A stretch of DNA of 28,260 nt, taken from contig JAFGOA010000127.1 of the NCBI GenBank assembly GCA_016926735.1, forward strand, positions 1 through 28,260. The letters are read 5' to 3'. This document shows positions 1,019 through 22,174 of this stretch, piece by piece; position 1 is the stretch's first letter, and every line of letters begins with the position of its first letter. The stretch comes from Promethearchaeota archaeon (lineage in GTDB: Archaea > Asgardarchaeota > Lokiarchaeia > Sigyniarchaeales > SOKP01). The position numbers and the translations under genes were made by a program. The notes below the pieces were generated by a model. It was given only the letters and a program-made list of their open reading frames with translations, searched no databases and was not told the origin of the DNA.

Positions 1019-1033
1019 GATCGTTCATTTAAG

Positions 1034-1414
1034 GTGTTAAATATATATTCCGATAAAGTCATGGATCATTTTAAAAATCCTCGTAATATGGGTGAAATGC
1101 TGGATGCTGATGCAATAGGAAAGGTTGGAAATCCTACTTGCGGAGATTTGATGTATATTTATATAAAAGTAAAGGATGACATAATTGATGATATATCTTT
1201 TCAAACTTTTGGTTGTGGAGCAGCAATTGCTACGAGTTCAATGATAACCGAATTAGCAAAAGGAAAATCTCTCGATGATGCTTTAAAGATTAAAAGAACA
1301 GATGTAGCACATGCTTTAGATGGTTTGCCTCCAATTAAGATGCATTGTAGCAATTTAGCTGCAGATGGATTGCATAAAGCAATCAATAAATATAGAAAAA
1401 AAAAGGATAATTAA
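1034..1414 (+). CDS. iscU: Fe-S cluster assembly scaffold IscU/NifU (true start possibly ATA at 1043)
   Basis: YSDKVMDHFKNPRNMG, GNPTCGD, FGCGAAIA, LPPIKMHCSNLA; all three scaffold Cys are present. Confidence 0.96.
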   Translation: MLNIYSDKVMDHFKNPRNMGEMLDADAIGKVGNPTCGDLMYIYIKVKDDIIDDISFQTFGCGAAIATSSMITELAKGKSLDDALKIKRTDVAHALDGLPPIKMHCSNLAADGLHKAINKYRKKKDN

Positions 1415-1514
1415 TAATTTCTTTATTTAAAAACAGATTAAATCAAGATAAGATTAATTATCCAAATAAGCTCATATCTATTCTTTTAATTAGTGAAACA
1501 AATTTGAAGATAAG

Positions 1515-2534
1515 ATGAAATCTGAAAATAAAAAAACAATTACAGGTATAGGTTTAGTTTCAGGAGGTTTAGATAGCCTTATTGCAACTCTCCTATTGAA
1601 AATCCAAAATATCAAGGTAATCATATTAAATTTTAAATCACCATTTTGTGTTAGTAAAAAAGAATGTAATAGGGAAAATTGTAGTTTAGATATTTATAAA
1701 GAGAAATTCAATATAGAAATAATTCATAAACAAATCCAAGATGATTATATTGAGATGCTAAAAAATCCAAAATTCGGATATGGAAAAAATTTTAATCCCT
1801 GTATTGATTGTAGAATCTATATTCTTAAAAAAACAAAAGAATTTGCAGAGGAAATAGGAGCTGATTTTATATTTACTGGAGAAGTGCTTAATCAAAGACC
1901 TAAATCACAAACTAAACAAGCTCTAGAAATAGTTGAAAAAGAAAGTAATTTAGAAGGAATATTACTTCGTCCTCTTTCTGCTAAGTTGCTAAAACCCACA
2001 ATATTAGAGGAAAAAGGGATAATTGATCGATCCCAACTATTAGGGATAGAGGGACGAAGTCGCAAAACTCAAGTAGAATTAGCAAGAAAATACAATTTAT
2101 TAACAGAATATTTTGCTTCTGGGGGATGTTTATTAACAGATAAATCTTATTCATTAAAAGCAAAAGATTTGATTAATCATTGTGAGAATTTAAAATTAAA
2201 AGATTTCAATATGTTAAAATATGGACGCCATTTTAGATATAAAAAAGCAAAAATAATAATAGGAAGAAATGAACAAGAGAATACAATTTTAGAACAATCT
2301 ATAAAACCTATGGATATTCTAATGTATGCTAAATATGTAAAAGGACCGATTACGATTATACAAGGAGATTTCAATGATGATATTGTTGAATTTGCGGCGA
2401 AAGTCACTTTGAGATATTCGGATCTTAATGAAAAAAATGGAATAGTTATATATAAAATTAATAACTCCAATGTAGAAAATGAATTATCTGTAAATAGAGC
2501 TTCTGAAGATTATTATAAAAACTACATGATATAA
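1515..2534 (+). CDS. ThiI-like PP-loop tRNA sulfurtransferase with C-terminal DUF814/NFACT-R-like RNA-binding domain
   Basis: PP-loop SGGLDS, NPCIDCR, TGEVLNQRPKSQ, GGCLLTD, then GRHFR...IIGRNEQEN. No N-terminal THUMP domain is visible. Confidence 0.8.
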   Translation: MKSENKKTITGIGLVSGGLDSLIATLLLKIQNIKVIILNFKSPFCVSKKECNRENCSLDIYKEKFNIEIIHKQIQDDYIEMLKNPKFGYGKNFNPCIDCRIYILKKTKEFAEEIGADFIFTGEVLNQRPKSQTKQALEIVEKESNLEGILLRPLSAKLLKPTILEEKGIIDRSQLLGIEGRSRKTQVELARKYNLLTEYFASGGCLLTDKSYSLKAKDLINHCENLKLKDFNMLKYGRHFRYKKAKIIIGRNEQENTILEQSIKPMDILMYAKYVKGPITIIQGDFNDDIVEFAAKVTLRYSDLNEKNGIVIYKINNSNVENELSVNRASEDYYKNYMI

Positions 2535-2561
2535 GAAAGAATTTTATTTAAAAAAAAATAT

Positions 2562-3470
2562 TTAAATTTCAAATAAGTCTGTTGTAAGATATCTCTCACC
2601 AGTATCAGGAAGTAAAACAACTATATTTTGTTTTTCATTAAAATCCTTAGCTGCAATATTTAATGTTGCCCATGTTGCAGCACCAGAAGAAATTCCTACA
2701 AATATTCCCTCTAATTTAGCTAGTTCTCTAGATGATTGAACTGCATCGTTATATTCTACTTGAATAATTTTATCATAAATTTTAGTATTTAAAACTTCAG
2801 GGATAAAACCAGCACCAATACCTTGTATTTTATGAGGACCTGAAGTGCCTCCTGAGAGCACTGGAGATCCTTTAGGTTCCACAGCATAGACTTTAATATG
2901 CTCTCCAACTTTTTTTTTAAGGATTTCACCCACTCCAGTAATAGTGCCTCCTGTTCCTACTCCTGCTATAAAACCATCAACTTCACCGTTTAAATCATTT
3001 ATTATTTCTTCAGCAGTTGTTTTTCTATGGATTTCTGGATTTGCTAAGTTTTTAAATTGTTGAGGAATAAATACTTTTTCATCATCATTTCCTAATTCTT
3101 CGGCTTTATTTATCGCTCCTTTCATTCCTTCCGTAGCAGGAGTAAGTATGATATCTGCCCCATAAGCTTTTAATATTTTTCTTCTTTCAATGGACATACT
3201 TTCTGGCATAGTTAATATCAGCTTATATCCTTTTACAGCACACACTAAAGCTAAACCAATTCCTGTATTTCCTGAGGTAGGTTCTACAATTATAGAACCT
3301 TTTTTTATAAGACCCTGATTTTCAGCTTTTTCTATCATAGCTAGAGCAATTCTATCTTTTACACTAGAACCTGGATTAAAAGCCTCGATTTTTGCGTAGA
3401 TATTTGGTTTCAAATTTTTATTAATTCTATTAAATTTAACTAAAGGTGTTTTACCGATTGTTTCGATCAT
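2562..3470 (-). CDS. cysK: Cysteine synthase (O-acetylserine sulfhydrylase); true start possibly ATT at 3491
   Basis: IGKTPLV, NPGSSVKDR (PLP Lys), EPTSGNTG, GVGTGGT, HKIQGIGAGF, PDTGERYL. Confidence 0.96.
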   Translation of the reverse strand: MIETIGKTPLVKFNRINKNLKPNIYAKIEAFNPGSSVKDRIALAMIEKAENQGLIKKGSIIVEPTSGNTGIGLALVCAVKGYKLILTMPESMSIERRKILKAYGADIILTPATEGMKGAINKAEELGNDDEKVFIPQQFKNLANPEIHRKTTAEEIINDLNGEVDGFIAGVGTGGTITGVGEILKKKVGEHIKVYAVEPKGSPVLSGGTSGPHKIQGIGAGFIPEVLNTKIYDKIIQVEYNDAVQSSRELAKLEGIFVGISSGAATWATLNIAAKDFNEKQNIVVLLPDTGERYLTTDLFEI

Positions 3471-3611
3471 ATTGTCATATATTGTAATAATTTATAGCAC
3501 CTCTTTTTTGAGAATCTTGAATTCATAAATCAAGAACATTATATAAATCTTCATGCGGTTTTTAGTCCTATTTTTAATTATCTATAATTAAATTTTTAAA
3601 ATATTTCTGAA

Positions 3612-4451
3612 TTAAATCCCTCCTCCATAGTTTCCGAAAAAGATCTCCACAGAATCATCTGATTTTTCTCTATCATTTAATATTTTTTTTTCTAAAAATT
3701 CAAGTCGAGAATTTAAGGTATTAATTGTAATAACCAGTGGATCTGGTAAATCTCCATGAGCCAAATCAATTTTTTTTATTTTATTTCCCTCTCTTGAAAT
3801 GACTTGCCCTGGAACGCCAACAACAACAGAATTTGGTGGTACATTCTTAACCACTACAGAGTTTGATCCAATTCGAGTATTATCTCCAATAGTTATTGGT
3901 CCAAGTAATTTTGCTCCAGTTCCAATAACAACATTATCCCCTACAGTAGGATGTCTTTTTTTATGCTCAAGAGAAACACCCCCCAAAACTACTCCTGAAT
4001 AAAGAGTAACATTATTTCCTATTTCTGCTGTTTCTCCAATAACAACCCCAGAACCATGATCAATAAAAAATTCACTTCCTATTTTTGCTCCAGGATGGAT
4101 TTCGATTCCAGTTAAATCTCTGGCAATGTCAGAGAGATATCTAGGGATAAATGGCATACCAATTTGCCAGAAAAAATGTGCAATTCTATATAATAACACT
4201 GCTTTTATACCAGGATAGCTTGTCAAAACTTCTAATATGGATTTAGCTGCAGGGTCTTTATTAAATGCAGAGCTAACGTCAGATACAAAAAAATCTAAAA
4301 TCTTCTGCAAAGATTTATCTAATTCTTCACGATTTATTTCTTGTACACTAAAATTTAAATCTAAAATACATTGTGCACAATAACTATGTTTTTCACTTTC
4401 TTTACAACTTAAATTTTTTCCGCAACTTAAACATTGTAAAAATTCTGCCAT
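3612..4451 (-). CDS. cysE: Serine O-acetyltransferase with N-terminal Cys-rich extension
   Basis: [39 protein letters not shown], hexapeptide repeats, HGDLPDP; N-terminus CLSC...C...CAQC. Confidence 0.95.
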
Positions 4452-4644
4452 ATATCATCCATACATGTTATTATTATTCAAAATTATTATTTCTAAAAAA
4501 AATTAGGTGCAAATATGTCATATATCACTATAAGTAAATAATTAAAAGATCCAATACCCTTTTTTAATTAAAAATAGTAATATGGATAATTTATAGTTAA
4601 GATTTATAACTTATAACATCAAATCAGAAATCTAATTCTATAAA

Positions 4645-4815
4645 TTAAAATATTAGCTTTTTCTTGTTATTTTGACTAACTTGTCTTTTTAGCCATTGTT
4701 GATTCCATTTTTGGAGACAGTTATTAGAACAAAAATTTTTAAGTTTATTAATGCAACAAGTCTTTCTTGTTATAGGATCTCCAATAATAATTTTATTACA
4801 ACCATTACATCTCAT
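4645..4815 (-). CDS. Unannotated 56-aa TRASH/YHS-like metal-binding microprotein
   Basis: Hand translation: MRCNGCNKIIIGDPITRKTCCINKLKNFCSNNCLQKWNQQWLKRQVSQNNKKKLIF*. It has the CxxC...FCSxxC TRASH pattern and lies co-oriented 23 nt after the sufS stop. Confidence 0.8.
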   Translation of the reverse strand: MRCNGCNKIIIGDPITRKTCCINKLKNFCSNNCLQKWNQQWLKRQVSQNNKKKLIF

Positions 4816-4838
4816 TTTAAATCATCTTCTTTTTATAT

Positions 4839-6035
4839 TTAATTAATTAATTCAGAGATATTCTTTAAAAAAATATCAATGTCTCTTTCATTATTGTATA
4901 AATACGTTGATAACCGAATAACGCCATTTGATGCATTGAAAGTGTTTCTTATTAAGGGTTCAGCACATAAGAATCCACTTCTTATGCAAATATTTGAAGA
5001 TATATTTAAAGATAAAGCAAGGTCATGAGGATTAACTCCTTTTATATTAAATGAGATTATTCCTATGCGATTTTTTAAATCTCCACCATATAATTCAATA
5101 TTTTTATTTTGTGACAAATTATTATATACTTTTTGAATTAGAGCTTTTTCATGATTTTCGATATTTTGTAATCCAATAGATTTTAAATATTTTATAGCTT
5201 TATCAAGTCCGATTAATTGGGCTATAGGTGGTGTTCCAGCTTCAAATTTATTTGTATTTGTTAATAACTTATAATTATAATTATTTACCCATTTAACTGC
5301 CCCACCACCAATAATTAAAGGACTAATTTCTTCTTGTAATTCTTTTTTAATAAATAAAATTCCAATCCCTGTCGGACTACACATTTTATGTGCTGAAAAT
5401 ACCAAAAAATCACAATTTAGATCATTTACATCAATACCAATATGAGGTACTGATTGAGCACCATCTATCATGACCATTGCTCCATTATCATGAGCAATAT
5501 TTATAATTTCTTTAATCGGAATTACTTTTCCAGTTACATTAGATAAATGTGTTATTGATACGATCTTTGTATGTTTACTAATCTTATTTTCAAAATCATT
5601 TATATCAAGATTACCATTATTATCTGAATTAACGATTTTCAAATCTATATTATATTGATCTTTTATTCTTAACCAAGGTAAATAATTAGAATGATGTTCT
5701 AATGATGTTGTAATAATATTATCTTCTTTATTCCAATTAATTCCATTTGCAATAATATTAATTCCTTCTGTTGAATTCTTAGTAACAATAATTTCCGATG
5801 AGTGTTTAGCGTTAATAAAATCTTGAACCGTAATTCTTGCTTTTTCATATTCTGCAGTAGCTTTTTGTGATATTTCATACATCCCTCTATTAATATTACT
5901 ACGATATTCTTTATAATATTCAACCATTTTATTTAAGACATTATTAGGGGTTAAACTAGTAGCTGCACTATCTAAATAAATAAGTTTATTCTTGTTTAAA
6001 ATTGGAAAATCCTTTCTTATTTTTTTAATATTCAT
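4839..6035 (-). CDS. sufS: Cysteine desulfurase, group II (SufS/CsdA type)
   Basis: IRKDFPIL, YLDSAATS, EHHSN, DGAQS, SAHKM (PLP Lys), FEAGTP, IRSGFLCA (RxGxxCA catalytic Cys). Confidence 0.93.
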   Translation of the reverse strand: MNIKKIRKDFPILNKNKLIYLDSAATSLTPNNVLNKMVEYYKEYRSNINRGMYEISQKATAEYEKARITVQDFINAKHSSEIIVTKNSTEGINIIANGINWNKEDNIITTSLEHHSNYLPWLRIKDQYNIDLKIVNSDNNGNLDINDFENKISKHTKIVSITHLSNVTGKVIPIKEIINIAHDNGAMVMIDGAQSVPHIGIDVNDLNCDFLVFSAHKMCSPTGIGILFIKKELQEEISPLIIGGGAVKWVNNYNYKLLTNTNKFEAGTPPIAQLIGLDKAIKYLKSIGLQNIENHEKALIQKVYNNLSQNKNIELYGGDLKNRIGIISFNIKGVNPHDLALSLNISSNICIRSGFLCAEPLIRNTFNASNGVIRLSTYLYNNERDIDIFLKNISELIN

Positions 6036-6058
6036 AAAAATATCCCTCTAATAAGACA

Positions 6059-6202
6059 TTATTTTATTTTCCCAAGTATTTTTGCACATTGTTTGCATAA
6101 TGAATGATGAAAATAACAATTATCACAAATCTTTCGAGAACATCTTCTACAAATGAAATTTGATTTGCTTTTTTTACAATTCTGGCAGAAATTTATCATC
6201 AT
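6059..6202 (-). CDS. Unannotated 47-aa zinc-finger microprotein (four CxxC; B-box-like)
   Basis: Hand translation: MMINFCQNCKKSKSNFICRRCSRKICDNCYFHHSLCKQCAKILGKIK*. It fills the thi4-sufS gap on the same strand. Confidence 0.78.
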   Translation of the reverse strand: MMINFCQNCKKSKSNFICRRCSRKICDNCYFHHSLCKQCAKILGKIK

Positions 6203-6244
6203 AGAGCATAGCTATTATAAAACCTAAAAAAAATTTTGACTATT

Positions 6245-7030
6245 TTATCTTTTTAAATCTTTTATTATTTCTTCAGCAACCTTTTTCCCTGATAATAACA
6301 TTCCACCAAATATAGGTCCCATTCTTGGAGTATTATATAATGTGCCTACTGCCATTCCTGTTGCGTATAATCCAGGAAACACCTTTCCTGTTTTTTCTAT
6401 TATTAATTCTTCACCAATCTTTGAATTCATTGATTTCTCTCCTAATGTTAATAAATTTAAATCAGGATTTTTTCTTGATGCTACTGCTAATATTTCAGCA
6501 TCATGTCCAGTTGCATCTACCAATGCTTTTGAGGCTACGCAAAGTGGATCCACATGAATTCCAGACATAATAACACTAACCCATTGTATAACTGCACCAG
6601 TAATTCTTAATGGATTTATATCAAACATAACATCATCAACTGTTATTCCAAGAATCATTTTTGCCCCAGCATCCATAACAGATGCAGATAATTTTGCAAT
6701 CATTTCTGCTGTATCAGTGGTATAAAATCCTTCTGATATTTTTTCTAATCTACATCCTACTTCTTTTAAGATGTCTGAGGCCGGATCTTGTATAACAAGC
6801 TTATGAAAAAGCATTCCTCCACCCCCAATTCCACCACCAAATGAAAGTCTTCTTTCAAATATTACAGTTTTTAATCCATTTTCAGCTAAAATTTTTGCTG
6901 CAATTAGACCAGATGGTCCTGCGCCAACAATTATTACATCTGACTCTGCAAGTTCTAACCAATCATCAGTTGCTTTTTTGATTATTGCTCTTGTTATATC
7001 TACTTCACTAACTGGCTTTAAATTGTCCAT
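6245..7030 (-). CDS. thi4: Thiazole synthase Thi4, His-type (sulfide-dependent)
   Basis: [28 protein letters not shown] (His where yeast Thi4 has Cys), [21 protein letters not shown]. Confidence 0.95.
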
Positions 7031-7269
7031 AATTTGATTACAAAGATTATTTAATTGCTTATTCCAAATTATTTTCTAAACCATTTATAATTAAATGTAA
7101 GTTTTGCATTTATTTTTCAATAATTACCTTCTTTAGCCAGATGAGAGTTCAAATTTAAAATTTAAAATTATCATAATTTTTAGTTTGAAATAAAAAATAA
7201 TCTTATACCTAAAATGAAAAAGATAAATAATAAAGTCGAGAAAATATCTTTAGAAAAAAACTATGAATA

Positions 7270-8211
7270 CTAATGTCTTAACATTTCCTCTATAGGTTTT
7301 AGTGCTCTTTTAGCTGTCTCATTAGGTACTTTAACTTCAAAGTTTTTATCATCTAGATGATTTAATAAATACTCTATTAACTCAAGACTATGTTTTTTCA
7401 TATTATAACATATCATTTTTTCATTAGCAAGAGTATATTTATTACCCGGAAAATCTATTTTTAATCTTTCTAAGAGACCTAATTCTGTTCCAATAATATA
7501 TTCTGTAATATTATTTAAATTCGACTCTACATATTTATACATATGTGCTGTTGAACCAACTATATCTGCTAATTCTCTAACTTCTCTCTTACATTCTGGA
7601 TGGACAAGAATTTTTGCTTTAGGATGTTTTGCTTTCATTCCTTTTATATCTCCTTGTGTTAATTGAGAATGTACAATACAATGCCCTTTCTCAGGCATTT
7701 TAATAGTTTTAATTCCAGATATTTGTTCAACATAATCAGCTAAATTAGCATCTGGTCCAAAAAGAACAGAATCGCAATGATGCTTATTTATCATATACTT
7801 TGTAATTTCTACACAATTGGATGATGTACAACAAATATCTGCCTCGGCTTTCACATCTGCAGTTGAATTAACATATACAATAATAGGATTATTAGGATAC
7901 CTCTTTTTAAACTCTAACACTTTTTCAGGAGTAAGAAATTTAGCCATGGGACAACATGATTCTGGATTAGGGATTAGTACATGTCTTTCTTGATTTAATA
8001 TCGAAGCTGTTTCTGCCATAAACCTGACACCAGCAAAAATAATATATTCAGTATTGGTTTTTTCCTTAGCAATCCGAGATAATCCTAAAGAATCTCCAAT
8101 ATGATCAGCAATTTCTTGAATTTCAATTGGTTGATAGTAATGAGCTAAGATAGTTACATCATTTTTCGATTTAAGGTCTAAAATTGTTGATTGTAATTGT
8201 TTTATTGTCAT
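7270..8211 (-). CDS. nadA: Quinolinate synthase ([4Fe-4S])
   Basis: ILAHYYQ, GDSLGL, GVRFMAE, CPMA, YVNS, CTSSN, HCIVH, VHPEC, GTE, CYNMK. Confidence 0.96.
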   Translation of the reverse strand: MTIKQLQSTILDLKSKNDVTILAHYYQPIEIQEIADHIGDSLGLSRIAKEKTNTEYIIFAGVRFMAETASILNQERHVLIPNPESCCPMAKFLTPEKVLEFKKRYPNNPIIVYVNSTADVKAEADICCTSSNCVEITKYMINKHHCDSVLFGPDANLADYVEQISGIKTIKMPEKGHCIVHSQLTQGDIKGMKAKHPKAKILVHPECKREVRELADIVGSTAHMYKYVESNLNNITEYIIGTELGLLERLKIDFPGNKYTLANEKMICYNMKKHSLELIEYLLNHLDDKNFEVKVPNETAKRALKPIEEMLRH

Positions 8212-8250
8212 TCTAAATTTATGCTCTTGATTTTTTTAAAATTTTTTTTA

Positions 8251-9465
8251 TTATTTAACATTATATGCCATATTTTTGTTTAAAGGAGACATTTTCCTCA
8301 ATCTTTCAACTATGGAAGGTAATATTTCTAACAAGTAATCTATATCACTTTCCTGATTAAATCGTCCTAATGATAGACGAAGAGATCCATGAGCTTCTTC
8401 TGGTTTTAATCCAATTGCAAGCAAAACATGAGAGGCTTCCAAAGATTTTGAAGAGCATGCGGACCCTGTAGATGCTGCTATTCCCTCCATATCTAAACTT
8501 AATAATATAGATTCTCCTTCAATATATCTAAAACCTATATTAGCATTATTAGGAAGTCGTTTAGTCGGATGTCCATTTAGATAAGTATCTTCAATATTTT
8601 CTAAAATAGAAGAAATTATTTTATCTCTCAATTTTTTTAATTTTCTATTATCACTATCCATTTCTTCTTTCGCTAATTCTGCAGCTTTAGCAAATCCTGC
8701 AATATTTGGAATATTTTCTGTGCTAGGACGATATCCCATTTCATGAGCTCCTCCAAACATTATTGGCCTGCAATAGGTTCCCCAACCCTCTTTTTTTCCT
8801 TTATTTCGCATATATAGCATTCCAACACCTTTTGGGCCATATAATTTATGAGCACTAGCGGATAACATATCAATCTTCAAATCATTCATATCTATGGGGA
8901 TTTTACCAAATGCTTGAACTGCATCTGTATGAAAGATAATATCAGATTCATTAGCAATTTCTCCAATTTCTTTTATAGGTTCTATGGTACCAATCTCATT
9001 ATTAGCAAACATTATACTGATAAGAATTGTTTTATTTGTGATTGTTTCCTTTAACTCCTCTAAGTCTATTAAACCAAATTTATCTACAGGTAAAAATGAT
9101 ACTTTAAATCCTTGTTTTTCTAATTCTTGAAAAGGACGCAATACAGCATGATGTTCTATTGATGAGGTTATTAAATGATTACCACGATTTTTATTCTTAT
9201 ATGCAACACCATTAATTGCAATATTATCTGCTTCTGTTCCAGAACCTGTAAAAATGATATCTTCTTTTACTGCATTTATTAAAGATGCAACTTTTTCTCG
9301 AGAGTTTTCTAAGGTTTCATGTGCTCTTAATCCCAAACTATGCAAACTAGAAGCATTCCCATAATCGGATTTAAGATGTTGATTAATAACATCAATTACA
9401 CGAGGATCAATAGGAGTTGTTGCTGCATTATCAAGATATATATATTTTTTATTCATTATAAGCAA
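8251..9465 (-). CDS. iscS: Cysteine desulfurase, group I (IscS/NifS type)
   Basis: YLDNAATT, GNASSLH, IEHHAV, ANNEIGT, HTDAVQ, SAHKLYGPKG, STGSACSS, GSLRLSLGR. Confidence 0.95.
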   Translation of the reverse strand: MLIMNKKYIYLDNAATTPIDPRVIDVINQHLKSDYGNASSLHSLGLRAHETLENSREKVASLINAVKEDIIFTGSGTEADNIAINGVAYKNKNRGNHLITSSIEHHAVLRPFQELEKQGFKVSFLPVDKFGLIDLEELKETITNKTILISIMFANNEIGTIEPIKEIGEIANESDIIFHTDAVQAFGKIPIDMNDLKIDMLSASAHKLYGPKGVGMLYMRNKGKKEGWGTYCRPIMFGGAHEMGYRPSTENIPNIAGFAKAAELAKEEMDSDNRKLKKLRDKIISSILENIEDTYLNGHPTKRLPNNANIGFRYIEGESILLSLDMEGIAASTGSACSSKSLEASHVLLAIGLKPEEAHGSLRLSLGRFNQESDIDYLLEILPSIVERLRKMSPLNKNMAYNVK

Positions 9466-9764
9466 ACCATAATTGATTTTTACTATAATAACAATTAATC
9501 AAGAAAATTAAGAATAAAATCATTAATTTTCATTCTATTGTAAGTATTATTTATAAAAAAAATTTTTGTTATAATTCGAAAATTGAAGTATTTTATCAAT
9601 AAAAAAAAAATGTGCTTAATTTTCACCATTTTTTAGAGAAGAAATGATATTTTTAAATAATTCGTATAACCTAAATTCTACTCATTGAATTAATATAAAA
9701 ATTGAATTAGATCGTGAAATTTAGGGTTTTTTAATAAAATTCTACAATAAACATCAAATTTAAG

Positions 9765-9801
9765 TATTGTGTTTTACACAATATATGTATAATACACAGT
9801 A
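9765..9801. promoter_or_regulatory. Candidate PadR autoregulatory operator (perfect 8-3-8 palindrome plus an imperfect second copy)
   Basis: TATTGTGT-TTT-ACACAATA at 9765-9783, with an imperfect repeat ATATGTAT-AAT-ACACAGTA at 9783-9801, directly upstream of the padR body. Confidence 0.6.
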
Positions 9802-10183
9802 TTCTAATTTGGTGTTCTTCATTTCAAAATCAAAAAATTCCTCAGAACAAATAATAAATAACTGGATAAAACAGTTGAGAAAAGGAATTCTAGAACTTGC
9901 AATATTATCTTATGTAAAAAATAAAGAATCTAAAACATATGGATATGAACTTATTAAAAATATGAAGAATAATAATATCAATATTGATTCAAATACGATG
10001 TATCCTATACTTCGAAGACTTGAAAAAAGTAAATTAATTGAATCCTTGTGGAAAACACAAAATAATCAACCAAGAAAATTGTTTAAAATAACAGAGGAAG
10101 GAAAATTTATACTTAGTGAATTAAGAAAGGAATGGAATATTTTTTATAGAAATACTAATAAAATTATAAATAAGGAGAATTAA
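9767..10183 (+). CDS. PadR-family transcriptional regulator (true start probably ATT at 9821)
   Basis: QLRKGILELAIL, TYGYELI, TMYPILRRLEK, W...PRKLFKITEEG, W near the C-terminus. Confidence 0.92.
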   Translation: MCFTQYMYNTQYSNLVFFISKSKNSSEQIINNWIKQLRKGILELAILSYVKNKESKTYGYELIKNMKNNNINIDSNTMYPILRRLEKSKLIESLWKTQNNQPRKLFKITEEGKFILSELRKEWNIFYRNTNKIINKEN

Positions 10184-14453: not shown

Positions 14454-14879
14454 TTTTATTTAAAATATATGAGACTGATGAACTATTGATTTGCCTTTTT
14501 TTACAGCTTCAATAATTTCACCTCTGGTTAAATTACTGCAGTAACAAATTGGAGAATTCATACTTTTATCTTTAAACCAAATCGGAAACTTAAGGTCATC
14601 TGTAGTGAAAAAATTACCATCTGAAAAATAGGAGATATTGCATAAAGGGGATGTACATATTAAATAACGACATTTATAGAGAATATGATCTTTCTTTTCT
14701 TGTTTGATAATATTTTCTAAGACCTTAATATCTACTTCTACTCCAAGACATGAGCATTTTGGACAAATATTTATTATTTCCATGATAAAACTCTAGTTCC
14801 TTAATTTAAAATTTATCAATACACTTATTGCAATAATTAAAAGAATTTAAAAATATAATATTATTTTTTAAATATGTAG

Positions 14880-15992
14880 GTGAAATTAATGTATTGTCAA
14901 AATTGTGGCATTGATTTAGATCCATCAGCAATTTATTGCGAAAAATGTGGTGTAAAAGTTCGAAGAGAAGATGCTACTAATTATTTTCAATATTCAGATC
15001 CAATGACACGTTATTATGATTTGGAATATGAATTAGGTGAAATTAATGAACAAATTAGTAGTTTACCTCAAAAAGAATTATATTTGCAGAAATTAGAACT
15101 TAAAAAAAATGAATTATCAAATAAACTTAATCACGTTCATTGGATTATGCAAAAAGAGAGAAAAGATTATGAAGATCTAATGAAAATGAGTTTTTCTTCA
15201 CTAAAAGCTCGCCTAAAGGGACATTTAGATGAAGAAAAGAGAAAAGAAGAGGCAGAATATCTTGAAGCATTAGCAAATTACGAATATGTAGAAAAGGAAT
15301 ATAGAGAATTAAAAGATGTAATCAATAACTTCCAGGAAAAAATTGTATATCTTCAAAAATTAAAACTTAAAGTGAGTGAAATTGAGAAAGAAATGTTTAA
15401 TCTTTTAGCTGAACTAACTAAAGAAAAATCTTCAGATAGATTAGAAAGATTAGAAAGATCTTATAATGAAATGCAAGGAAAATTACATAAAGAAAAGAAA
15501 ATTGAAAATCAATTTAGAAAAACACAGGAAATACTTGGAAAAGCTCAAAATCATTTAGATATTGCACTTCATAAATTAAGTTCCGCTCAAGGATTGGGGA
15601 CTTGGGATACTTTTTTTGGAGGAGGATTTTTTGTTGATAGTATGAAGCATAATAATTTGAATTCAGCGAAGTCAGATATTAATTATGCACAATCATATAT
15701 CAGACAAGCAAAAGATATGATAGAAATTGTTGATGATATACATATTAATTTTGAAGCACCCAACATGTTTACAGATATATTTTTTGATAATTTTTTCTTT
15801 GATATGTTTGGAAATGCAAAAATCAGTCGAACTAGGGATAGTGTTCAAAATGCTTATCAGAAAGTAAGTGAAATAAGAGAAAACATTATTCATGATTTAA
15901 AAATACAAGAGCAAAACACATTAAATCTCATAGGTCAAGTCAATAATATAAGAAAAGAAATTAGAGCTGAAAGAAAACTTCTTTTACAATAA
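14880..15992 (+). CDS. Zinc-ribbon + long coiled-coil protein with hydrophobic WDxFxGGG and FxDxFFD motifs (true start likely ATG 14889)
   Basis: N-terminal CQNCG...CEKCG, heptad-rich helices, GLGTWDTFFGGGFFVDSMKH and FTDIFFDNFFFDMF. Confidence 0.8.
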   Translation: MKLMYCQNCGIDLDPSAIYCEKCGVKVRREDATNYFQYSDPMTRYYDLEYELGEINEQISSLPQKELYLQKLELKKNELSNKLNHVHWIMQKERKDYEDLMKMSFSSLKARLKGHLDEEKRKEEAEYLEALANYEYVEKEYRELKDVINNFQEKIVYLQKLKLKVSEIEKEMFNLLAELTKEKSSDRLERLERSYNEMQGKLHKEKKIENQFRKTQEILGKAQNHLDIALHKLSSAQGLGTWDTFFGGGFFVDSMKHNNLNSAKSDINYAQSYIRQAKDMIEIVDDIHINFEAPNMFTDIFFDNFFFDMFGNAKISRTRDSVQNAYQKVSEIRENIIHDLKIQEQNTLNLIGQVNNIRKEIRAERKLLLQ

Positions 15993-16144
15993 AAAAGGTT
16001 CAATTCTTTTCTTTTAATTTGATTAGAATTTCTATTTTTCTTAATAAAAGAATTATAATTCAGTAAATCGACAGTCTACAGATTTATGAATACAGATAAA
16101 TATTATAATATTAGAGCAAGATTCAATATTAAAAATGATACTGT

Positions 16145-16666
16145 ATGAGTGAGATAATTGTATTTTTTTTTTTAGGGGGATTCATTTTCATATTAATTTT
16201 CTGTCTTATTTATTATTTTAGTAGAAAGTCAATAAAAATAAAAAATAAGAGATATATTCCAGATAAAGCTCAAAAATATAAATGTTTAGATGGTCATATA
16301 ACAAAATCCAAAGGAGAAATGATAATAGATAATCATTTACATCGTTTAGGAATTTTACATATTTATGAAGATACACTCAAGGTTAATGGTAGTAAAATTA
16401 AATACGATTGGTTTTTACCAGAATATAAAATATATATTGAATATTGGGGGTATTTTGGTAAAAAATATTTTGAAAGAAAGAAAGAGAAGATAAAAATATA
16501 CAAAAAAGGAAATTTAAAACTCATTTCTATTGAAGAAAAGATGTTTGAAAATATATATGAAGAATTGGAGGGTTTTTTAAAAAGATATATTCCTCTTGAT
16601 AAAATCAATAATCAAATTCAATTTTGTCCAAATTGTGGAAATAGCTTAGATGATAGATTTATCTAA
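16145..16666 (+). CDS. Membrane-anchored PD-(D/E)xK-like nuclease-fold protein with C-terminal CxxC
   Basis: N-terminal TM (IIVFFFLGGFIFILIFCLIYYF), DGHITKSKGEMIIDN, YE, YDWFL...IYIEYWG, KIKIY, FCPNCG. Confidence 0.7.
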   Translation: MSEIIVFFFLGGFIFILIFCLIYYFSRKSIKIKNKRYIPDKAQKYKCLDGHITKSKGEMIIDNHLHRLGILHIYEDTLKVNGSKIKYDWFLPEYKIYIEYWGYFGKKYFERKKEKIKIYKKGNLKLISIEEKMFENIYEELEGFLKRYIPLDKINNQIQFCPNCGNSLDDRFI

Positions 16667-16749
16667 TTCTTTCATAATGGTAAAGAGATTTTTTTTAAGT
16701 TTTATTATTAGGAACTTTTATATTTCAAATAGTGATATAAAATATTAAG

Positions 16750-17838
16750 GTGAAATTTATGCGATGCAGAAATTGTAATATAGAATTAGATTCTTCAGTA
16801 ATATATTGTGAAAAATGTGGTGTTAAGGTAAGAAAAGAGGATATTATTAAATTCTTTACATATTCAGAGCTTTTGATTCATTATTATGATTTAGAATATG
16901 AATTAGATCATATAAATGAACAAATTAGTTCTTTAGCACTAAAAGAAGCCTATTTAGAAAAATTAATTAAAAGAAAAAAAGGATTATCAAATCACCTTGA
17001 TAAGGTTCAAATGCTTATACAAAAAGAGAAAAAGGACTATGATAATTTGCTGAAAATAAGTATTTCTTCAATAAAAGCTCGAATAAAGGGATTATTAGAT
17101 GAAAAGAAGAAAAAAGAGGAAATTGAATATTATGAAGTATTGATTAATTATAAAGAAAATCAAAAAATCTTTGAATCTGTATTAAAGGATATTGACCGTG
17201 AGAAAAAAGAAATTGAACATATTCAAAAATTAAAACAAAAAATCCCTGAAATTGATAAAGAACTTCAAAAAATACTATATAAATTGACTAAAGGGAGATC
17301 AACTAATAAATTAATAGAATTAGAGCAGGAATATAAAGATATAAAAACAGAATTATATACTTTAAAAAAAAATGAACCTATTTATATAAAAGCAATTAAT
17401 TATCTTGAGAAAGGGAGAATTCATTTAGGTAGGGCTGTTCATAAAGTTAGTTCTGCTCAAAAAATCATAGGTAATATCATTTTTGATTTAATAAGAAATA
17501 AGAAATTAAATATAGCAAAAAAAGAAATACATGATGCTATGTATTACATAGATCAAGCTAATGATTTAGTAGATATTTTGGATAATGTTCATATAGATTT
17601 TCTAATTCCTAATTCCTATATGATTGGTTTAAGGAATAATTTTATTTTTGATAGTATAGTGAGTCTTCAATTAAGTCAGACAATAAATAGTGTTAAACAA
17701 GCATATGAAAAAGTTCGTCAAATGAGGGAAGCTTTAATAGGTCTTTTAAGAATCCGAGAACAAAAAAGTAAGATTTTGATTGTTAAAATTAATAAAATAA
17801 GAAAAGAAATTATGAAAGAAAGAGAATCTCTTCTATAA
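16750..17838 (+). CDS. Diverged paralogue of 14880..15992 (zinc ribbon + coiled coil; true start likely ATG 16759)
   Basis: Shares IYCEKCGVKVR, YYDLEYEL..INEQISSL, KARxKG.LDE, SSAQ and AYxKV with the first copy, but lacks the WDTFFGGG segment. Confidence 0.8.
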   Translation: MKFMRCRNCNIELDSSVIYCEKCGVKVRKEDIIKFFTYSELLIHYYDLEYELDHINEQISSLALKEAYLEKLIKRKKGLSNHLDKVQMLIQKEKKDYDNLLKISISSIKARIKGLLDEKKKKEEIEYYEVLINYKENQKIFESVLKDIDREKKEIEHIQKLKQKIPEIDKELQKILYKLTKGRSTNKLIELEQEYKDIKTELYTLKKNEPIYIKAINYLEKGRIHLGRAVHKVSSAQKIIGNIIFDLIRNKKLNIAKKEIHDAMYYIDQANDLVDILDNVHIDFLIPNSYMIGLRNNFIFDSIVSLQLSQTINSVKQAYEKVRQMREALIGLLRIREQKSKILIVKINKIRKEIMKERESLL

Positions 17839-18021
17839 GAGTTCCCAATATTATTATACCTATAAATAGGGATTTTTTTTTTCAACATTAAAATACACTA
17901 ATTACATGATCAACAAAAGAAAATTTATGTTATTTCCTAAAATTTAACAATAGATTTTTTATATTTTACGTTATTATTATTAAATTAGCTATTATTTTAG
18001 AATAAAGTATATTAAATTAAA

Positions 18022-18471
18022 ATGAAATTACCCCCCGCAGAAGAGATAACTCTAATTAACATAAAGGACTCATTGCTTTTAGCTAAATATTTAAAGAAGG
18101 CATGGAATGAAGATTGCTTTATTGTTTTTGAAGTAATTAATCAAGGATCAAATTATTATACTCAATTTGCTTTAAGTAATGAAAGTTCATCATTAGAATG
18201 GGAATTTGTTTCTAATGAATATCTTGACCCCCAATTTAGGTTATCCGATGAAAAAATTCAATTATTAATTAATAGAGGTTTTATATATCAAGATCCAGAA
18301 TTATATAAATATCCCTCTCCGAATTTTGTTAAAAGTTTTGTTTTTAAGGAGATAGATGATAATAATACAACTTTAGAATTTCAAAAGATTATGAAAGAAG
18401 CTATTGAGATATTTATAGAGATATATGAATTAAAATATCCAATACAAATTAAGATAAAATTTGTAAAATAA
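18022..18471 (+). CDS. Hypothetical protein resembling T3SS-chaperone/YbjN-like (TY-Chap) domains
   Basis: YYTQFA...EFVSNEYL...LSDEKIQLLINRGF...SPNF pattern; recognised from memory only. Confidence 0.55.
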   Translation: MKLPPAEEITLINIKDSLLLAKYLKKAWNEDCFIVFEVINQGSNYYTQFALSNESSSLEWEFVSNEYLDPQFRLSDEKIQLLINRGFIYQDPELYKYPSPNFVKSFVFKEIDDNNTTLEFQKIMKEAIEIFIEIYELKYPIQIKIKFVK

Positions 18472-18489
18472 AAATAATTACTATATCTT

Positions 18490-19203
18490 ATGACAAATTT
18501 AAAAGAATCTTGTATTGTAGTTTTTAGTGGAGGTCAAGATTCAACTACATGTTTATTATGGGCTTTAAAAAAATTTAAAGAGATCTATGTTATAACATTT
18601 AATTATAGGCAAAGACATCAAGTTGAGATCGAATCCGCTAAAAAAATTATTTCAATTCTAAAATCAAAAGAAAATCATTCAATAGAATGGCTAACAGATA
18701 ATTCTATTAAAGAACATAAAATAATAGATATTTCTTTTCTTTCAGAAATTTCAAAATCAGCTATGATTCAAGAAACGGAAATTATATATAATGAGGAAAC
18801 TAATTTACCTTCTACATTTGTACCAGGAAGAAATATATTATTTCTAACTATTGTTGCTGCATATGCATATCAAAAGAAAATTCATTATCTTGTTACTGGA
18901 GTTTGTCAAGAAGACTATTCTGGATATCCCGATTGTAGAGATACAACAATAAAATCGATCCAAGCCTCTCTTCAGTTGGGTATGGAATTTGATTTTATTA
19001 TCCATACACCTCTTATGTGGAAATCAAAAGCTAGAACAATAAAATTGATGGAAAAATTAGGAGGATTAGAGTTATATAAATATACCCATACCTGTTATAA
19101 AGGGGAAAGACCTGCTTGTGGAGAATGCTTTGCATGTGAACTTCGGTTAAAAGGTTTTAAAGAAGCAGGGATAAAGGATCCATTAGAATATAAATCTTTA
19201 TAA
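18490..19203 (+). CDS. queC: 7-cyano-7-deazaguanine (preQ0) synthase
   Basis: VFSGGQDSTTCL, YRQRH, TFVPGRN, DYSGYPDCR, TPLM, TCY...CGECFACELR. Confidence 0.96.
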   Translation: MTNLKESCIVVFSGGQDSTTCLLWALKKFKEIYVITFNYRQRHQVEIESAKKIISILKSKENHSIEWLTDNSIKEHKIIDISFLSEISKSAMIQETEIIYNEETNLPSTFVPGRNILFLTIVAAYAYQKKIHYLVTGVCQEDYSGYPDCRDTTIKSIQASLQLGMEFDFIIHTPLMWKSKARTIKLMEKLGGLELYKYTHTCYKGERPACGECFACELRLKGFKEAGIKDPLEYKSL

Positions 19204-19215
19204 TAGATCTTTCAG

Positions 19216-19671
19216 TTATTCTTCATAGGATGCTATTGATCCTTTTGATTCTCCTACTTTTACTATAATTTTCTTGGTTTTGTATATAATTTTTAATTTA
19301 TCATAGATAAATTTAGCTAGAATTTCGCTAGTAGTAGCAGGTAAAGGAAGTAAACATACGTCTTGTTTGGGAAAAATGTATTTTTTTAATGAATTGATCA
19401 CTTCAATTGAATCACTTTTTTCTATTACCTCTATTTTCTTTGATTCTGTTGGAATTAAAATATAATGATCTAAAGGTTCAATAATTTCTTTTAATTTTTC
19501 TTTAAGTTCCATAAAATCAACTACAAAATAATTCTCATCTAAATTATCACTTATTTCCACAGAAACATAATAATTATGACCATGAAGTCTTGAACATTTA
19601 GGATGTTCTTTGAGGAAATGACATGCACTAAATTTAGCTTTCGCATCATTAACAATTATTTTATATCCCAT
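19216..19671 (-). CDS. queD: 6-carboxytetrahydropterin synthase
   Basis: FSACHFL, CSRLHGHNY, VDF, LDH, TTSE.LA, VGES. Confidence 0.92.
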   Translation of the reverse strand: MGYKIIVNDAKAKFSACHFLKEHPKCSRLHGHNYYVSVEISDNLDENYFVVDFMELKEKLKEIIEPLDHYILIPTESKKIEVIEKSDSIEVINSLKKYIFPKQDVCLLPLPATTSEILAKFIYDKLKIIYKTKKIIVKVGESKGSIASYEE

Positions 19672-19816
19672 ATAATATCACGTTTTATAGATTGTTTTAT
19701 ATTATGGATTTATTCTTTTATAATCAAATATATTAATGTATACTTAAACATAAATTTGGTTTTTCTGAAATATATAAAAATAAATTGTAAATCAATAATT
19801 TCTCATAAAAAATAGC

Positions 19817-20680
19817 TTATAGTAAATTCAGATATTTATGTGCTTGAATAGATAGGGATATGTTATTAGGAGATAGATATTCTGCTACTCTATAAAATAT
19901 TTGATTTAAATGATCTGTATTAATGGTATATTTTATTTTTAGATTTTCATCTACTAAAAATACTGGCTGAATCGCCAAACCAATATCATTTTTACCATTA
20001 TATTCAATATTTGCTAATCTTTTACTAATCAAATCTATATCTTCAATTTTCGTTTTTGATGTTACAATTAACTTTGCAAATGTTCTAATATTATAATCTG
20101 TAAATTTCTCAATAAATTTTAATTCTTTATCAATTATTTTATGCCACTCAATATTATTAGCAATATTTGAACTTCTATCCTTTATATCGCAACAACAGTA
20201 CTTGAAGTATTTAGCTATTAATTGCATTTGAGTGTTAGTAGGAATAATTGTCCCATTTGTTTCCAAATAAAGAGGATATTCAATCCTGTATTGATCAAAT
20301 GATTCTAAAAAAGATTCAATAAAATCGAGTTGACATAGAGGTTCTCCTCCTGTGAAACTAATTGAATGAACATCCTTAGTATATAAACTTTTTATAATAT
20401 CTGCAAGATCATGAGATTCTATAGGATTATTACGCTTTTTAAACTTTCCAGAACCAGGCTTTTCTTCGATTCTTACAATAGGATTTTTAAATATTTGCGC
20501 AGATGGAGAATCGCACCAAAAACAAGAAGAAACATTTTCAATTTTGTTGGAAAGATTACATCCAGAAAATCTTACAAAAATTTGTCGTTTTCCAAAACAA
20601 CTACCGTTTAAGGAACCACCTTCTCCTTGTAAAGAAGAAAATATTTCCATAATATAAGTTTTTGACTTCTCACTATTCAT
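19817..20680 (-). CDS. queE: 7-carboxy-7-deazaguanine synthase (radical SAM)
   Basis: EIFSSLQGEG, FVRFSGCNL...CFWCDS, SFTGGEP, LETNGT, QP, QAHKYL. Confidence 0.92.
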   Translation of the reverse strand: MNSEKSKTYIMEIFSSLQGEGGSLNGSCFGKRQIFVRFSGCNLSNKIENVSSCFWCDSPSAQIFKNPIVRIEEKPGSGKFKKRNNPIESHDLADIIKSLYTKDVHSISFTGGEPLCQLDFIESFLESFDQYRIEYPLYLETNGTIIPTNTQMQLIAKYFKYCCCDIKDRSSNIANNIEWHKIIDKELKFIEKFTDYNIRTFAKLIVTSKTKIEDIDLISKRLANIEYNGKNDIGLAIQPVFLVDENLKIKYTINTDHLNQIFYRVAEYLSPNNISLSIQAHKYLNLL

Positions 20681-20906
20681 TTTAGAATCCTTTTTCTTGA
20701 CAAAATTATATTAAGAAATTCTTAGATTAGTATAGATAATAATAATTATAACTAGTAAAGTAAAGAATTATAAATGATCTATATTTATTAATAACTTGAC
20801 TTTTATTTAAAATAGGAAAGGGAATATAAGTATTTTTGGATATAGTTTAGAAAACAATTTGAATTCTTATGTTTATTTAGTTAACGATTGAATTTGGTAT
20901 AATGGT

Positions 20907-21461
20907 GTGAAAGATTTGAATAACTCTGTGGATTTAACCTATAAACTATCTATTTTTGGTGTAAAAGGTGTAGGGAAGACAACTTTAATTCATAGATACA
21001 TTACAAATATATTTGATGTGAATGTTAAGTCTACATTAGGAGCGGCTATTCATGTTAAATATTTGAAAATAGATAATAAAACGGTATTAATTCAGATATG
21101 GGATTTTGGTGGTGAAGAAAAGTATAGATTTCTATTACCCTCATATGCATATGGCACATTTGGTGCAATCTTTATGTATGATACTACTAATAAAGAAACT
21201 TTAAATAATTTTAAAGAATGGATCTCTATATTTAAAAGTGGTTTAAGAGAAGATAAATTAGAAATTCCAATATTATTGGTAGGTGGAAAAACAGACCTTT
21301 TAAATCAAAGGAGTTGTTTTAAAGAAGATCTTGAGAAAATTATTCAATCGAATTTATTTTTCAATATCATGGAATGCTCTTCTAAAACGGGAGAAAATGT
21401 GGATAAAGTGTTTAGAATTTTATTAGAAGAAATAATGAAAAGGATTTCTTTAATAGAATAA
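20907..21461 (+). CDS. Rab-like small GTPase 1
   Basis: G1 GVKGVGKTT, G2 STLG, G3 IWDFGGEEKYR, G4 VGGKTD, G5 ECSSK; no C-terminal prenylation Cys. Confidence 0.93.
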   Translation: MKDLNNSVDLTYKLSIFGVKGVGKTTLIHRYITNIFDVNVKSTLGAAIHVKYLKIDNKTVLIQIWDFGGEEKYRFLLPSYAYGTFGAIFMYDTTNKETLNNFKEWISIFKSGLREDKLEIPILLVGGKTDLLNQRSCFKEDLEKIIQSNLFFNIMECSSKTGENVDKVFRILLEEIMKRISLIE

Positions 21462-21628
21462 ATTATTTTCTTCTAAATTATATTCTAATTATATCAATTG
21501 TGAAGGATTAATATTTGGTTAAATAAGGATCATGAAAAAACAATAATCATAATTTTAGTGATATATAAAATAGATAAGCAGGTTTTTTGAAAATATTTTT
21601 AAATTCTTAAATTTTAAGAGGTGTAACA

Positions 21629-22174
21629 ATTATCAAAACGGAAATAGACTATACATATAAAATAGCCATTTTTGGAGAGAGAGGTGTGGGAAAAACTTCT
21701 TTAATTACGAGATTTATTACTAATACATTTAATATAGATACAAAACCAACAATGGGTGCTGCAATTCATGTAAAATATATAGAAAGGGATAGTAAAACGA
21801 TATTACTCCAAATTTGGGATTTTGGAGGTGAAGACAAATACAGATTCTTATTACCCTCATATGCATATGGTACCTTTGGTGCAATCTTTATGTATGATAT
21901 TACTAAAATCGAAACATTAGCTAATTTTAGAGAATGGATTTCTGTTTTTAAAAGTGGTTTAAAAACAGATAATAATGAAATTCCTATACTATTAGTTGGA
22001 GGAAAATTAGATCTTGAAAGTAATAGAAATTGTTCAGAAAATGATATTAATAGTCTATTGAATACTGGATTATTCTTTGATAAAATAGAATGTTCATCTA
22101 TGACAAATAAAAATATAAATAAAGTATTTGTATTAATGTTAGATAAAGTAATAAAACTCCAAGAAAGAATATAA
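21629..22174 (+). CDS. Rab-like small GTPase 2 (ORF track starts inside the P-loop; real start probably ATT 21629)
   Basis: In-frame upstream sequence IIKTEIDYTYKIAIFGERGVGKTS supplies beta1 and G1. G3 WDFGGEDKYR, G4 GGKLD, G5 ECSSM. Confidence 0.9.
   Translation: MIKTEIDYTYKIAIFGERGVGKTSLITRFITNTFNIDTKPTMGAAIHVKYIERDSKTILLQIWDFGGEDKYRFLLPSYAYGTFGAIFMYDITKIETLANFREWISVFKSGLKTDNNEIPILLVGGKLDLESNRNCSENDINSLLNTGLFFDKIECSSMTNKNINKVFVLMLDKVIKLQERI

Follow-up and report, generated by a model that had tools for sequence, protein, structure and literature searches.

ATA and ATT as probable start codons behind strong Shine-Dalgarno sequences in a Promethearchaeota genome

ATA and ATT, and rarely ATC, are very probably working start codons on mRNAs with a strong Shine-Dalgarno (SD) sequence in the genome of a Loki-type Asgard archaeon of the Promethearchaeota (assembly GCA_016926735.1; order Sigyniarchaeales). 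The genes that raised the question lie on contig JAFGOA010000127.1, of which 28,260 nucleotides were analysed (the window). There, genes for the scaffold protein IscU, for CysK and for a Rab-like GTPase have one of the codons ATT, ATA and ATC (ATH), rather than one of ATG, GTG and TTG (NTG), at a near-fixed distance from a GGTG-type SD sequence. The initial annotation, made from the letters of the window, had concluded that this organism routinely initiates at AUU and AUA. That these codons are real starts is supported by their enrichment at the SD spacing, by Pfam domains, by orthologues, by NCBI proteins, and by a clean Escherichia coli control. “Routinely” is apt in that about 60 genes appear to be affected, but too strong in that these are roughly 2% of genes, or approximately a fifth to a quarter of those led by a strong SD sequence. 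Likewise, start selection looks relaxed for ATA and ATT (and, in orthologues, ATC), but selectivity is not generally lost.

ATA and ATT at the Shine-Dalgarno spacing

The assembly comprises 3.88 Mb in 238 contigs with a GC content of 26%; it is estimated to be 99.3% complete with 4.84% contamination, and the window is its contig C172. Counts were made on a whole-genome set of 3,117 open reading frames (ORFs) kept by a codon log-odds filter. SD-like words are over-represented 8–15 nt upstream of the first ATG of long ORFs; for example, among 1,978 ORFs, GGTG occurs 69 times at a spacing of 5–8, versus 12 times in a control window. The consensus of the start sites is A-GGTG-A, part of AGGAGGTGATCC, which is the full SD complement expected from the 16S rRNA 3′ end in the closed genome of a member of the same order, GGATCACCTCCT. 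No 16S rRNA was found in the genome's own assembly, nor in the four family members searched. A strong SD motif is present in about one-tenth of the genes, in agreement with statements in two reviews that SD sequences are rare in Lokiarchaea (PMC12993045, PMC7531240).

Enrichment was measured at the 5′ ends of genes. The SD 5-mers GGAGG, GAGGT, AGGTG, and GGTGA were counted where they lie between −9 and +27 nt of the gene's upstream in-frame stop, with spacing measured from the last G of GGTG. There are 329 such sites, of which 209 have an in-frame NTG at a spacing of 3–12 and 120 have none. The spacing of NTG starts has its maximum at 6–7, and the ATH profile is the same, with the same maximum. 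Indeed, at the 120 NTG-less sites, an in-frame ATH is found at 31/42 for spacing 6 and at 30/45 for spacing 7. Over spacings of 5–8, ATH accounts for 80/151 in-frame codons versus 25/314 out of frame (Fisher 3e-26) and versus 97/720 in-frame codons at spacings of 13–30 (Fisher 9e-24). The signal is also seen with SD 6-mers (35/50 vs 9/108) and with 4-mers (127/445 vs 82/823). The initial annotation had called for a genome-wide count of this kind, and both of its codons prove to be enriched: among the 87 codons at spacing 6–7 there are 34 ATA, with 4.5 expected, and 24 ATT, with 4.8 expected. ATC (3 vs 1.3 expected), TTT (6 vs 3.5), and AAA (1 vs 8.7) complete the picture, the other codons being unremarkable, and nearly the whole excess is due to ATA and ATT. 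The same script applied to 400 kb of the E. coli chromosome gives 2/25 vs 8/108 (p = 1), or 5/114 vs 32/510 with 4-mers.

Three other ways of counting were set aside. Raw counting after every GGTG showed no ATG peak, with the periodicity of coding sequence masking the signal, and was replaced by the 5′-end-anchored counts. Codon counts before the NTG with 4-mer SD sequences gave a modest excess (ATT 73 vs 36, ATA 55 vs 31) that is confounded by 3-base periodicity. An expectation-maximisation start model over 61 codons was noisy, weighting AAA and TCA like ATA and ATT, and was not used.

The surplus above background amounts to about 60 sites. The genes flagged in this way number 77 (41 with ATA, 33 with ATT, and three with ATC) and are spread over 51 contigs. 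No in-frame NTG lies upstream of the ATH in 45 of them, and the next in-frame NTG is 2–204 codons downstream, commonly at least 20. A census of SD-led genes at a spacing of 5–8 gives ATG 100, TTG 40, GTG 4, ATA 41, ATT 33, and ATC 3; chance is expected to account for about one in four of the ATH calls. The preponderance of TTG over GTG in this census is also seen for the first NTG of long ORFs (491 vs 201), and it is consistent with the AT bias of the genome.

What distinguishes the genes with ATH starts? First, the share of ATH grows with the length of the SD sequence, from a net 65 vs 517 NTG with 4-mers to a net of about 28 vs 71 with 6-mers; ATH initiation needs a strong SD sequence. Second, spacing 6–7 holds 61/77 ATH and 34/40 TTG starts, as opposed to 54/100 ATG starts (Fisher 5e-4 each), meaning that the geometry is strict for non-ATG starts. 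Third, usage of the second residue after ATH is like that after NTG starts, with Ser and Lys foremost. Fourth, ATH genes tend to stand apart from their upstream neighbors, and this bears on the suggestion that ribosomes finishing an upstream gene reinitiate nearby, with the identity of the start codon being of minor importance. In keeping with such coupling, AGGTGA in many cases supplies an in-frame TGA shortly before the start, and iscU begins 24 nt past the end of the upstream ORF. However, a same-strand gene ends no more than 30 nt upstream for only 18/77 ATH genes, compared with 64/144 SD-led NTG genes, and the median distance for ATH genes is 223 nt. On these distances, reinitiation was rejected as the general mechanism, and the chance that it accounts for the ATH codons is very slight.

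Window genes, protein domains, and orthologues

One case in the window is the iscU/nifU-type scaffold gene (1043..1414, + strand, 123 aa), which has the SD sequence AGGTG at 1032..1036, complementary to the 16S 3′ end of the relative, followed by TTAAAT and ATA 1043. The NCBI protein is also 123 aa long and begins MYSDKV, which corresponds to ATA 1043, and position 1 of the NCBIfam model TIGR03419 aligns to residue 2. Across 14 orthologues in the family, the codon aligned with ATA 1043 is ATA in four, ATT in three, ATC in one, and ATG in six. The eight ATH orthologues have AGGTG, GAGGTG, or GGAGGT at a spacing of 6–7; the six with ATG have AGGT (three), GAGGAG (one), or no SD-like motif. In four relatives (G017, G016, G004, and G013), an in-frame NTG is impossible between the stop and the ATH. 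The predicted start at ATA 1043 is secure through the orthologues and the family profile.

The cysK gene (2562..3491, − strand, 309 aa) reads GAGGTG-CTATAA-ATT, with the SD sequence at 3498..3503 and the start at ATT 3491. The GTG of this SD sequence runs into an in-frame CTA TAA, directly before the ATT, so it is unable to start the gene. A second ATT follows at 3488 and the next ATG at 3470; the NCBI protein (308 aa, beginning MTIYDN) starts at the second ATT. A check of relatives, as proposed in the initial annotation, shows that ATG does occur at the aligned positions, not only in six of the 14 iscU orthologues but also at cysK, where it is aligned exactly with ATT 3491 in 7 of 12 orthologue loci and lies one codon later in two others. 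ATT 3491 appears to be the best start, given its SD spacing and the aligned ATGs, over ATT 3488 and ATG 3470.

For the Rab-like GTPase (Pfam Ras; 21629..22174, + strand, 181 aa), GAGGTG at 21618..21623, with its GTG out of frame, is followed after five nucleotides by ATT 21629. An in-frame TAA lies at 21608–21610, and, as initially noted, there is no NTG between this stop and the P-loop; the first NTG is GTG 21686, midway through the P-loop. Position 1 of the Pfam Ras profile aligns to residue 17 of the frame that opens at 21611. Public versions of the protein are 162 aa (NCBI, starting inside the P-loop) and 140 aa long. The closest orthologue (76% identity) has AGGTG-N8-ATA, and in more distant orthologues the equivalent N-terminus begins with GTG, TTG, or ATG. 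Elsewhere in the genome, three Ras-family paralogues have no NTG before the P-loop and do have an SD sequence with ATT. The proposed start at ATT 21629 can be regarded as secure. Just upstream lies a second Ras-family GTPase gene (20892–21461) with TTG 20916 eight bases past a GGTG, such that paralogues with different weak start codons stand side by side. Overall, among orthologues of IscU, CysK, and the Rab-like GTPase, ATA, ATT, or ATC alternates with ATG at the aligned position or no more than one codon away.

A fourth case, padR, is a candidate start only. GGTG-TTCTTC-ATT is present at 9811..9823 (+ strand) with ATT at 9821, but the ATT is not established as the start, with GTG 9812 and TTG 9809 as rivals. 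The SD sequence is merely a 4-mer (GGTG, 9811–9814), and the NCBI start is ATG 9785. One orthologue, in G011, has an ATG three codons past the position aligned with the ATT, and is the sole orthologue with a nearby ATG. The upstream region that includes ATG 9785 contains conserved palindromes and, when read in the congener G001, stops; this argues against ATG 9785, yet does not single out the ATT. The palindromes, of the TTGTGT...ACACAA type, lie at 9730–9810, are conserved in three relatives, and are probably a PadR operator or promoter that overlaps ATG 9785.

The initial annotation had used two canonical genes as a comparison, and AGGTG-N6-ATG is indeed read in the sequence of both: at 14878..14891 (+ strand), with ATG at 14889, and at 16748..16761 (+ strand), with ATG at 16759. 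The corresponding genes (14880–15992 and 16741–17838) are adjoining paralogues encoding proteins with an N-terminal zinc ribbon (CxxC...CxxC), and they have this start region in common.

Could the GTG within GGTG be the true start, with the ATA or ATT three codons on being a plain Ile codon? A 6-base spacer puts this GTG in frame by construction, as for iscU (GTG 1034) and padR (GTG 9812), and the same GTG makes up most of the in-frame NTGs found upstream of the ATH in 32 of the 77 flagged genes, where it is a possible true start. Taken alone, iscU would leave GTG 1034 as a rival. However, spacing 7, which puts the GTG out of frame, is as enriched as spacing 6, and initiation at GTG gives no reason for Ile codons to pile up exactly three codons later. 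The cysK GTG runs into a stop, and iscU orthologues in G016, G017, G004, and G013 retain the ATH in settings where there is no GTG, where the GTG lies in another frame, or where an in-frame TGA separates the two. In addition, the NCBIfam NifU model starts at the residue directly after the iscU ATA. The GTG is therefore an improbable start for these genes, although of the competing explanations it is the least improbable.

Protein domains provide a further line of evidence. A rule requiring an SD 5-mer with ATH, no upstream in-frame NTG, and a next NTG at least 28 codons downstream, with the window contig excluded, picks 19 genes. Thirteen of these have a Pfam domain whose first residue precedes the next NTG. 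For five of the 13, the domain can be set directly against the next NTG: an XPD-type helicase (ResIII from residue 12, next NTG at 78), a flavodiiron protein (from 36, next NTG at 92), Kae1/TsaD (29–300 on profile positions 7–264, next NTG at 120), an M28 peptidase (from 109, next NTG at 163), and an ArsR-type helix-turn-helix (HTH) protein (19–64, next NTG at 59). The others are MTHFR (domain from 11), Snf7 (ESCRT-III; from 26), a GPN-type GTPase (ATP_bind_1, 6–250 on profile 1–238), an amino-acid kinase (AA_kinase, 4–218), a Ras-type GTPase (Ras, 9–171 on profile 1–160), an E2-like protein (UQ_con from 27, on profile position 25), a Nitro_FeMo-Co protein (8–96 on profile 1–93), and a TPR protein (from 13). 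In nine genes out of the 13, the match begins near profile position 1 and not far from the proposed start. Of the remaining six of the 19, one is uninformative, its CorA domain beginning after the next NTG; another has a Pfam match under the cut-off, and the last four match no family. The set of genes started by ATH takes in housekeeping genes, including those for Kae1, IscU, CysK, MTHFR, the XPD-type helicase, ESCRT-III, and the GPN- and Ras-type GTPases.

The domains speak to the possibility that translation begins at the next downstream NTG, yielding shorter proteins, and that the upstream SD sequence and ATA or ATT are coincidental. The CorA-type gene, in which the domain lies wholly past the next NTG, would allow it; so would cysK, where the short form would lack only seven residues and its ATG, at codon 8, arose within the lineage. 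Shorter NTG-started proteins are also made by gene callers and are present in public databases. Nevertheless, the next NTG is in many cases tens of codons away, and starting there would cost the Ras and GPN GTPases their P-loop, the helicase its N-terminus, the ArsR-type regulator its whole HTH, and the initiation factor aIF1 most of its length. A downstream start also leaves the frame- and spacing-specific enrichment unexplained, and is very unlikely to be the general answer.

How do public databases treat these genes? For the first 10 of the 13 Pfam-supported genes, the NCBI protein starts at the predicted ATH in four and 1–6 codons upstream, ahead of any in-frame NTG, in another four. Of the other two, one has an NTG-truncated NCBI protein, and for Snf7 the NTG-truncated query form is absent from the collection. 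This NCBI annotation was obtained independently of the search for SD sequences with ATH. Forms starting at the next NTG are found in Logan-derived entries for 8 of the 10, and some are also found in ENA, JGI/IMG, and other NCBI entries. For the XPD helicase, the NTG form is the sole entry, in NCBI too, and truncated Kae1, GPN GTPase, and E2-like proteins are likewise present in public databases. The suggestion that N-termini are systematically mis-annotated thus applies to callers limited to NTG, as seen for the Rab-like protein cut in its P-loop, but not to NCBI throughout, whose iscU starts at ATA 1043 and whose cysK starts at ATT 3488.

Another possibility is that the genes are pseudogenes, assembly errors, or contamination, with in-frame stops breaking what had been longer genes. 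The source is a metagenome-assembled genome with the contamination noted above, and a comparison of paralogues offers some encouragement for this idea. Alignments reach at least eight residues upstream of the first NTG in 81 of 1,289 genes with paralogues; an SD sequence with ATH precedes the start of the alignment in only 15 of the 81, and 26 match the interior of longer paralogues with no such site found, as fragments might. (The same comparison was rejected as a count of ATH starts lacking an SD sequence, the mapping of starts onto the query being too imprecise.) Against this, profiles that start near position 1 do not imply a missing N-terminal piece. The same combination of SD sequence and ATH is found at orthologous sites of separately assembled genomes, and the signal is carried by a closed genome as well. 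The genes concerned lie on 51 contigs and include those for Kae1 and aIF1, both regarded as indispensable. Decay or artefact is accordingly a most unlikely source of the pattern. A changed genetic code or stop read-through was also rejected: homology does not extend upstream, and the profile begins near position 1 in most of the Pfam-supported genes. The stops that precede ATH starts include TAA (cysK and the Rab-like gene), TGA (within AGGTGA), and TAG.

aIF1 and the relatives

The use of ATH starts is not peculiar to this organism. ATH frequencies at spacings of 5–8 and 13–30 were compared in samples from relatives, which are kin genomes and so not independent. In G001, of the same genus, ATH is found at 7/12 vs 8/66 (400 kb, p = 1e-3). 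Two members of the same family give 5/11 vs 6/48 (G018, 400 kb, p = 0.02) and 3/15 vs 6/78 (G010, 261 kb), or 8/26 vs 12/126 when pooled (661 kb, p = 8e-3). In another family, G024 gives 3/7 vs 4/36 (278 kb, p = 0.07), and 1.2 Mb of the closed 4.36-Mb genome G026 gives 13/25 vs 12/132 (p = 3e-6), with out-of-frame ATH at 2/58 and NTG at 68 sites. The trait is at least family-wide and extends to a second family of the order, where it is apparently lower in frequency.

One gene with an apparent ATT start has a particular bearing on start selection. The gene for aIF1 (Pfam SUI1; G000:C86:5536-5862, + strand) has its first in-frame NTG at codon 82 of 108, and two ATT codons lie upstream of the CxxC zinc knuckle. 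An in-frame NTG ahead of the knuckle is lacking in 16 of 25 genomes from across the order: 14/17 in the family of the window, 2/6 in a second family, and 0/2 in a third. Of these 16, 15 have ATT, ATC, or ATA at a distance of five or six codons upstream of the knuckle's Ile-Cys; in G028 the distance is nine codons. The remaining aIF1 genes have GTG, TTG, or ATG. The NCBI protein of this genome is 105 aa, counted from the first ATT, with relatives named “YciH”; several other public versions are cut inside or past the knuckle. Many family members have a AGGTNGTGA-like element about 10 nt before the aIF1 ATT, with its GTG out of frame; this spacing is outside the optimum of 6–7. Three relatives have an in-frame GTG in the equivalent element, as initiation at the GTG itself would allow. 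The aIF1 gene itself apparently starts at ATT.

There is a parallel with bacterial infC, whose start codon is AUU or AUA and through which IF3 controls its own synthesis, and with the poor-context AUG through which eIF1 is autoregulated, suggesting the hypothesis that aIF1 feeds back on the stringency of start selection. On this hypothesis, the set of start codons would have been widened to AUA and AUU in an order of Asgard archaea, with aIF1 starting at AUU, AUC, or AUA and its level feeding back on itself and tuning several dozen genes; we consider this possible, at somewhat less than an even chance. As a side observation, aIF1 of the window's genus scores 50–54 bits against Pfam SUI1, four other family members score 37–53 bits, and most other genera score 59–70 bits; the lower-scoring genus is also the highest in use of ATA and ATT starts, in a small sample of kin genomes.

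Several observations weigh against ATA and ATT as starts, in addition to the in-frame GTGs considered above. All of the support is comparative and statistical, and chance would be expected to yield about 20 of the 80 site hits, so single calls may be wrong. At cysK, the 10 loci that do not belong to the species pair encode Ile or Val at codon 8; loss of ATG at codon 1 and gain of ATG at codon 8 occurred in the same lineage, which also fits a start that has moved downstream. At padR, four in-frame NTGs lie upstream of the ATT (TTG 9767, ATG 9785, TTG 9809, and GTG 9812). The G010 sample is not significant on its own, nor is the first 400 kb of G026 (2/8), which becomes significant at 1.2 Mb. 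Finally, the proposed SD pairing leans on the 16S rRNA of a relative, the genome's own 16S rRNA and initiator tRNA not having been found.

Mechanism, known systems, and meaning

How might AUA and AUU serve as start codons? Pairing of the SD sequence with the 3′ end of 16S rRNA would lock the small subunit in place, such that the codon 6–7 nt downstream lies in the P site. The initiator Met-tRNA could then be accepted on a codon that matches at the first two bases only, with a mismatch at the third, and a strong SD sequence at optimal spacing would offset the weakness of the codon. ATG may become ATA or ATT by a change of G to A or T, supplied by AT mutation pressure at a GC content of 26%. That SD strength and spacing can compensate for a weak codon is a principle reported for four non-canonical sites in Staphylococcus aureus, all of which have extended SD motifs that help weak start codons (PMC13009471).

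Neither aragorn nor a search with a short anticodon-arm motif found an initiator tRNA. Aragorn calls only one tRNA with a CAT anticodon, and it lies inside an array of 21 tRNA genes. This array (contig C157, 23.8 kb; from ~7000–8400 and beyond) is tight, has low-GC stems, includes the sole aragorn tRNA-Met(CAT) along with one tRNA-Ile(TAT), and looks like a mobile-element or viral array rather than a host set. Six further tRNA genes lie on C42. On the minus strand of C166 (~1790–2040) there are GC-rich tRNA genes with introns, including one with a CAT anticodon that is not called by aragorn; it apparently has two introns and a G1:C72-type acceptor stem, and is elongator-like.

ATT and ATA starts are already known as rarities; what appears to be new here is their scale and their occurrence as an archaeal lineage-wide trait. 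In bacteria, AUU and AUA start E. coli infC and pcnB and S. aureus infC, cvfC1, ccpN, and citZ, with the same codons and a strong, well-spaced SD sequence as here. A fidelity-factor gene uses such a codon in both settings, namely infC in bacteria and apparently aIF1 here. The scale is different: two genes in E. coli and four sites in S. aureus, versus roughly 60 genes here, many of them housekeeping genes. The machinery also differs, with archaeal aIF1, aIF1A, and aIF2 here and IF3 in bacteria. According to one study, E. coli has two confirmed genes with such starts, the codons giving 1–2% of AUG activity, and annotated starts in 34 well-annotated bacterial genomes are ATG (81.8%), GTG (13.8%), and TTG (4.35%) (10.1101/063800).

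Genetic-code tables contain the same set of codons. NCBI table 11 lists ATT, ATC, and ATA as possible starts, and table 4 and the mitochondrial tables do so more widely; the NCBI pipeline already sets starts on ATH codons in this genome. Such tables are permissive only, leaving frequency, SD dependence, and lineage unstated. In eukaryotes, near-cognate initiation is policed by eIF1, of which aIF1 is the archaeal counterpart, and eIF1 is autoregulated through an AUG in poor context; a weak start on the gene for aIF1 would match this feedback logic. However, the start would be positioned here by the SD sequence, as opposed to scanning and Kozak context, and the preferred eukaryotic near-cognates are CUG and GUG, not AUA and AUU. 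A literature search, with most subscription journals and supplements outside its reach, found no publication on AUU or AUA starts in Asgard or other archaea, and none describing such starts at this scale, as an archaeal lineage-wide trait, or on aIF1.

What are the implications of these start codons? First, they affect annotation. Most Asgard genomes are metagenome assemblies in which genes are called with ATG, GTG, and TTG only. The Prodigal gene caller, for example, is stated to ignore ATA, ATT, and CTG (PMC2848648). In this lineage, dozens of proteins are shortened or missed by NTG-only callers. The Rab-like GTPase lacks half of its P-loop in public versions, and aIF1 of this genome would shrink to a 26-codon ORF. 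This can affect comparative claims that eukaryote-like proteins are “missing” or “short” in Asgard archaea. Second, the trait is informative about archaeal start selection, in which eukaryote-type factors act on SD-positioned mRNAs, and it illustrates a trade-off of SD strength and spacing against codon strength. Third, a lineage near the eukaryotic stem that tolerates a third-base mismatch at dozens of genes would be a natural system for the study of stringency by aIF1, aIF1A, and aIF2. The signal is found in a closed genome of the same order, and a cultured member, if there is one, would allow direct testing. If the feedback proposal is true, the level of aIF1 would tune several dozen AUA- and AUU-started genes together.

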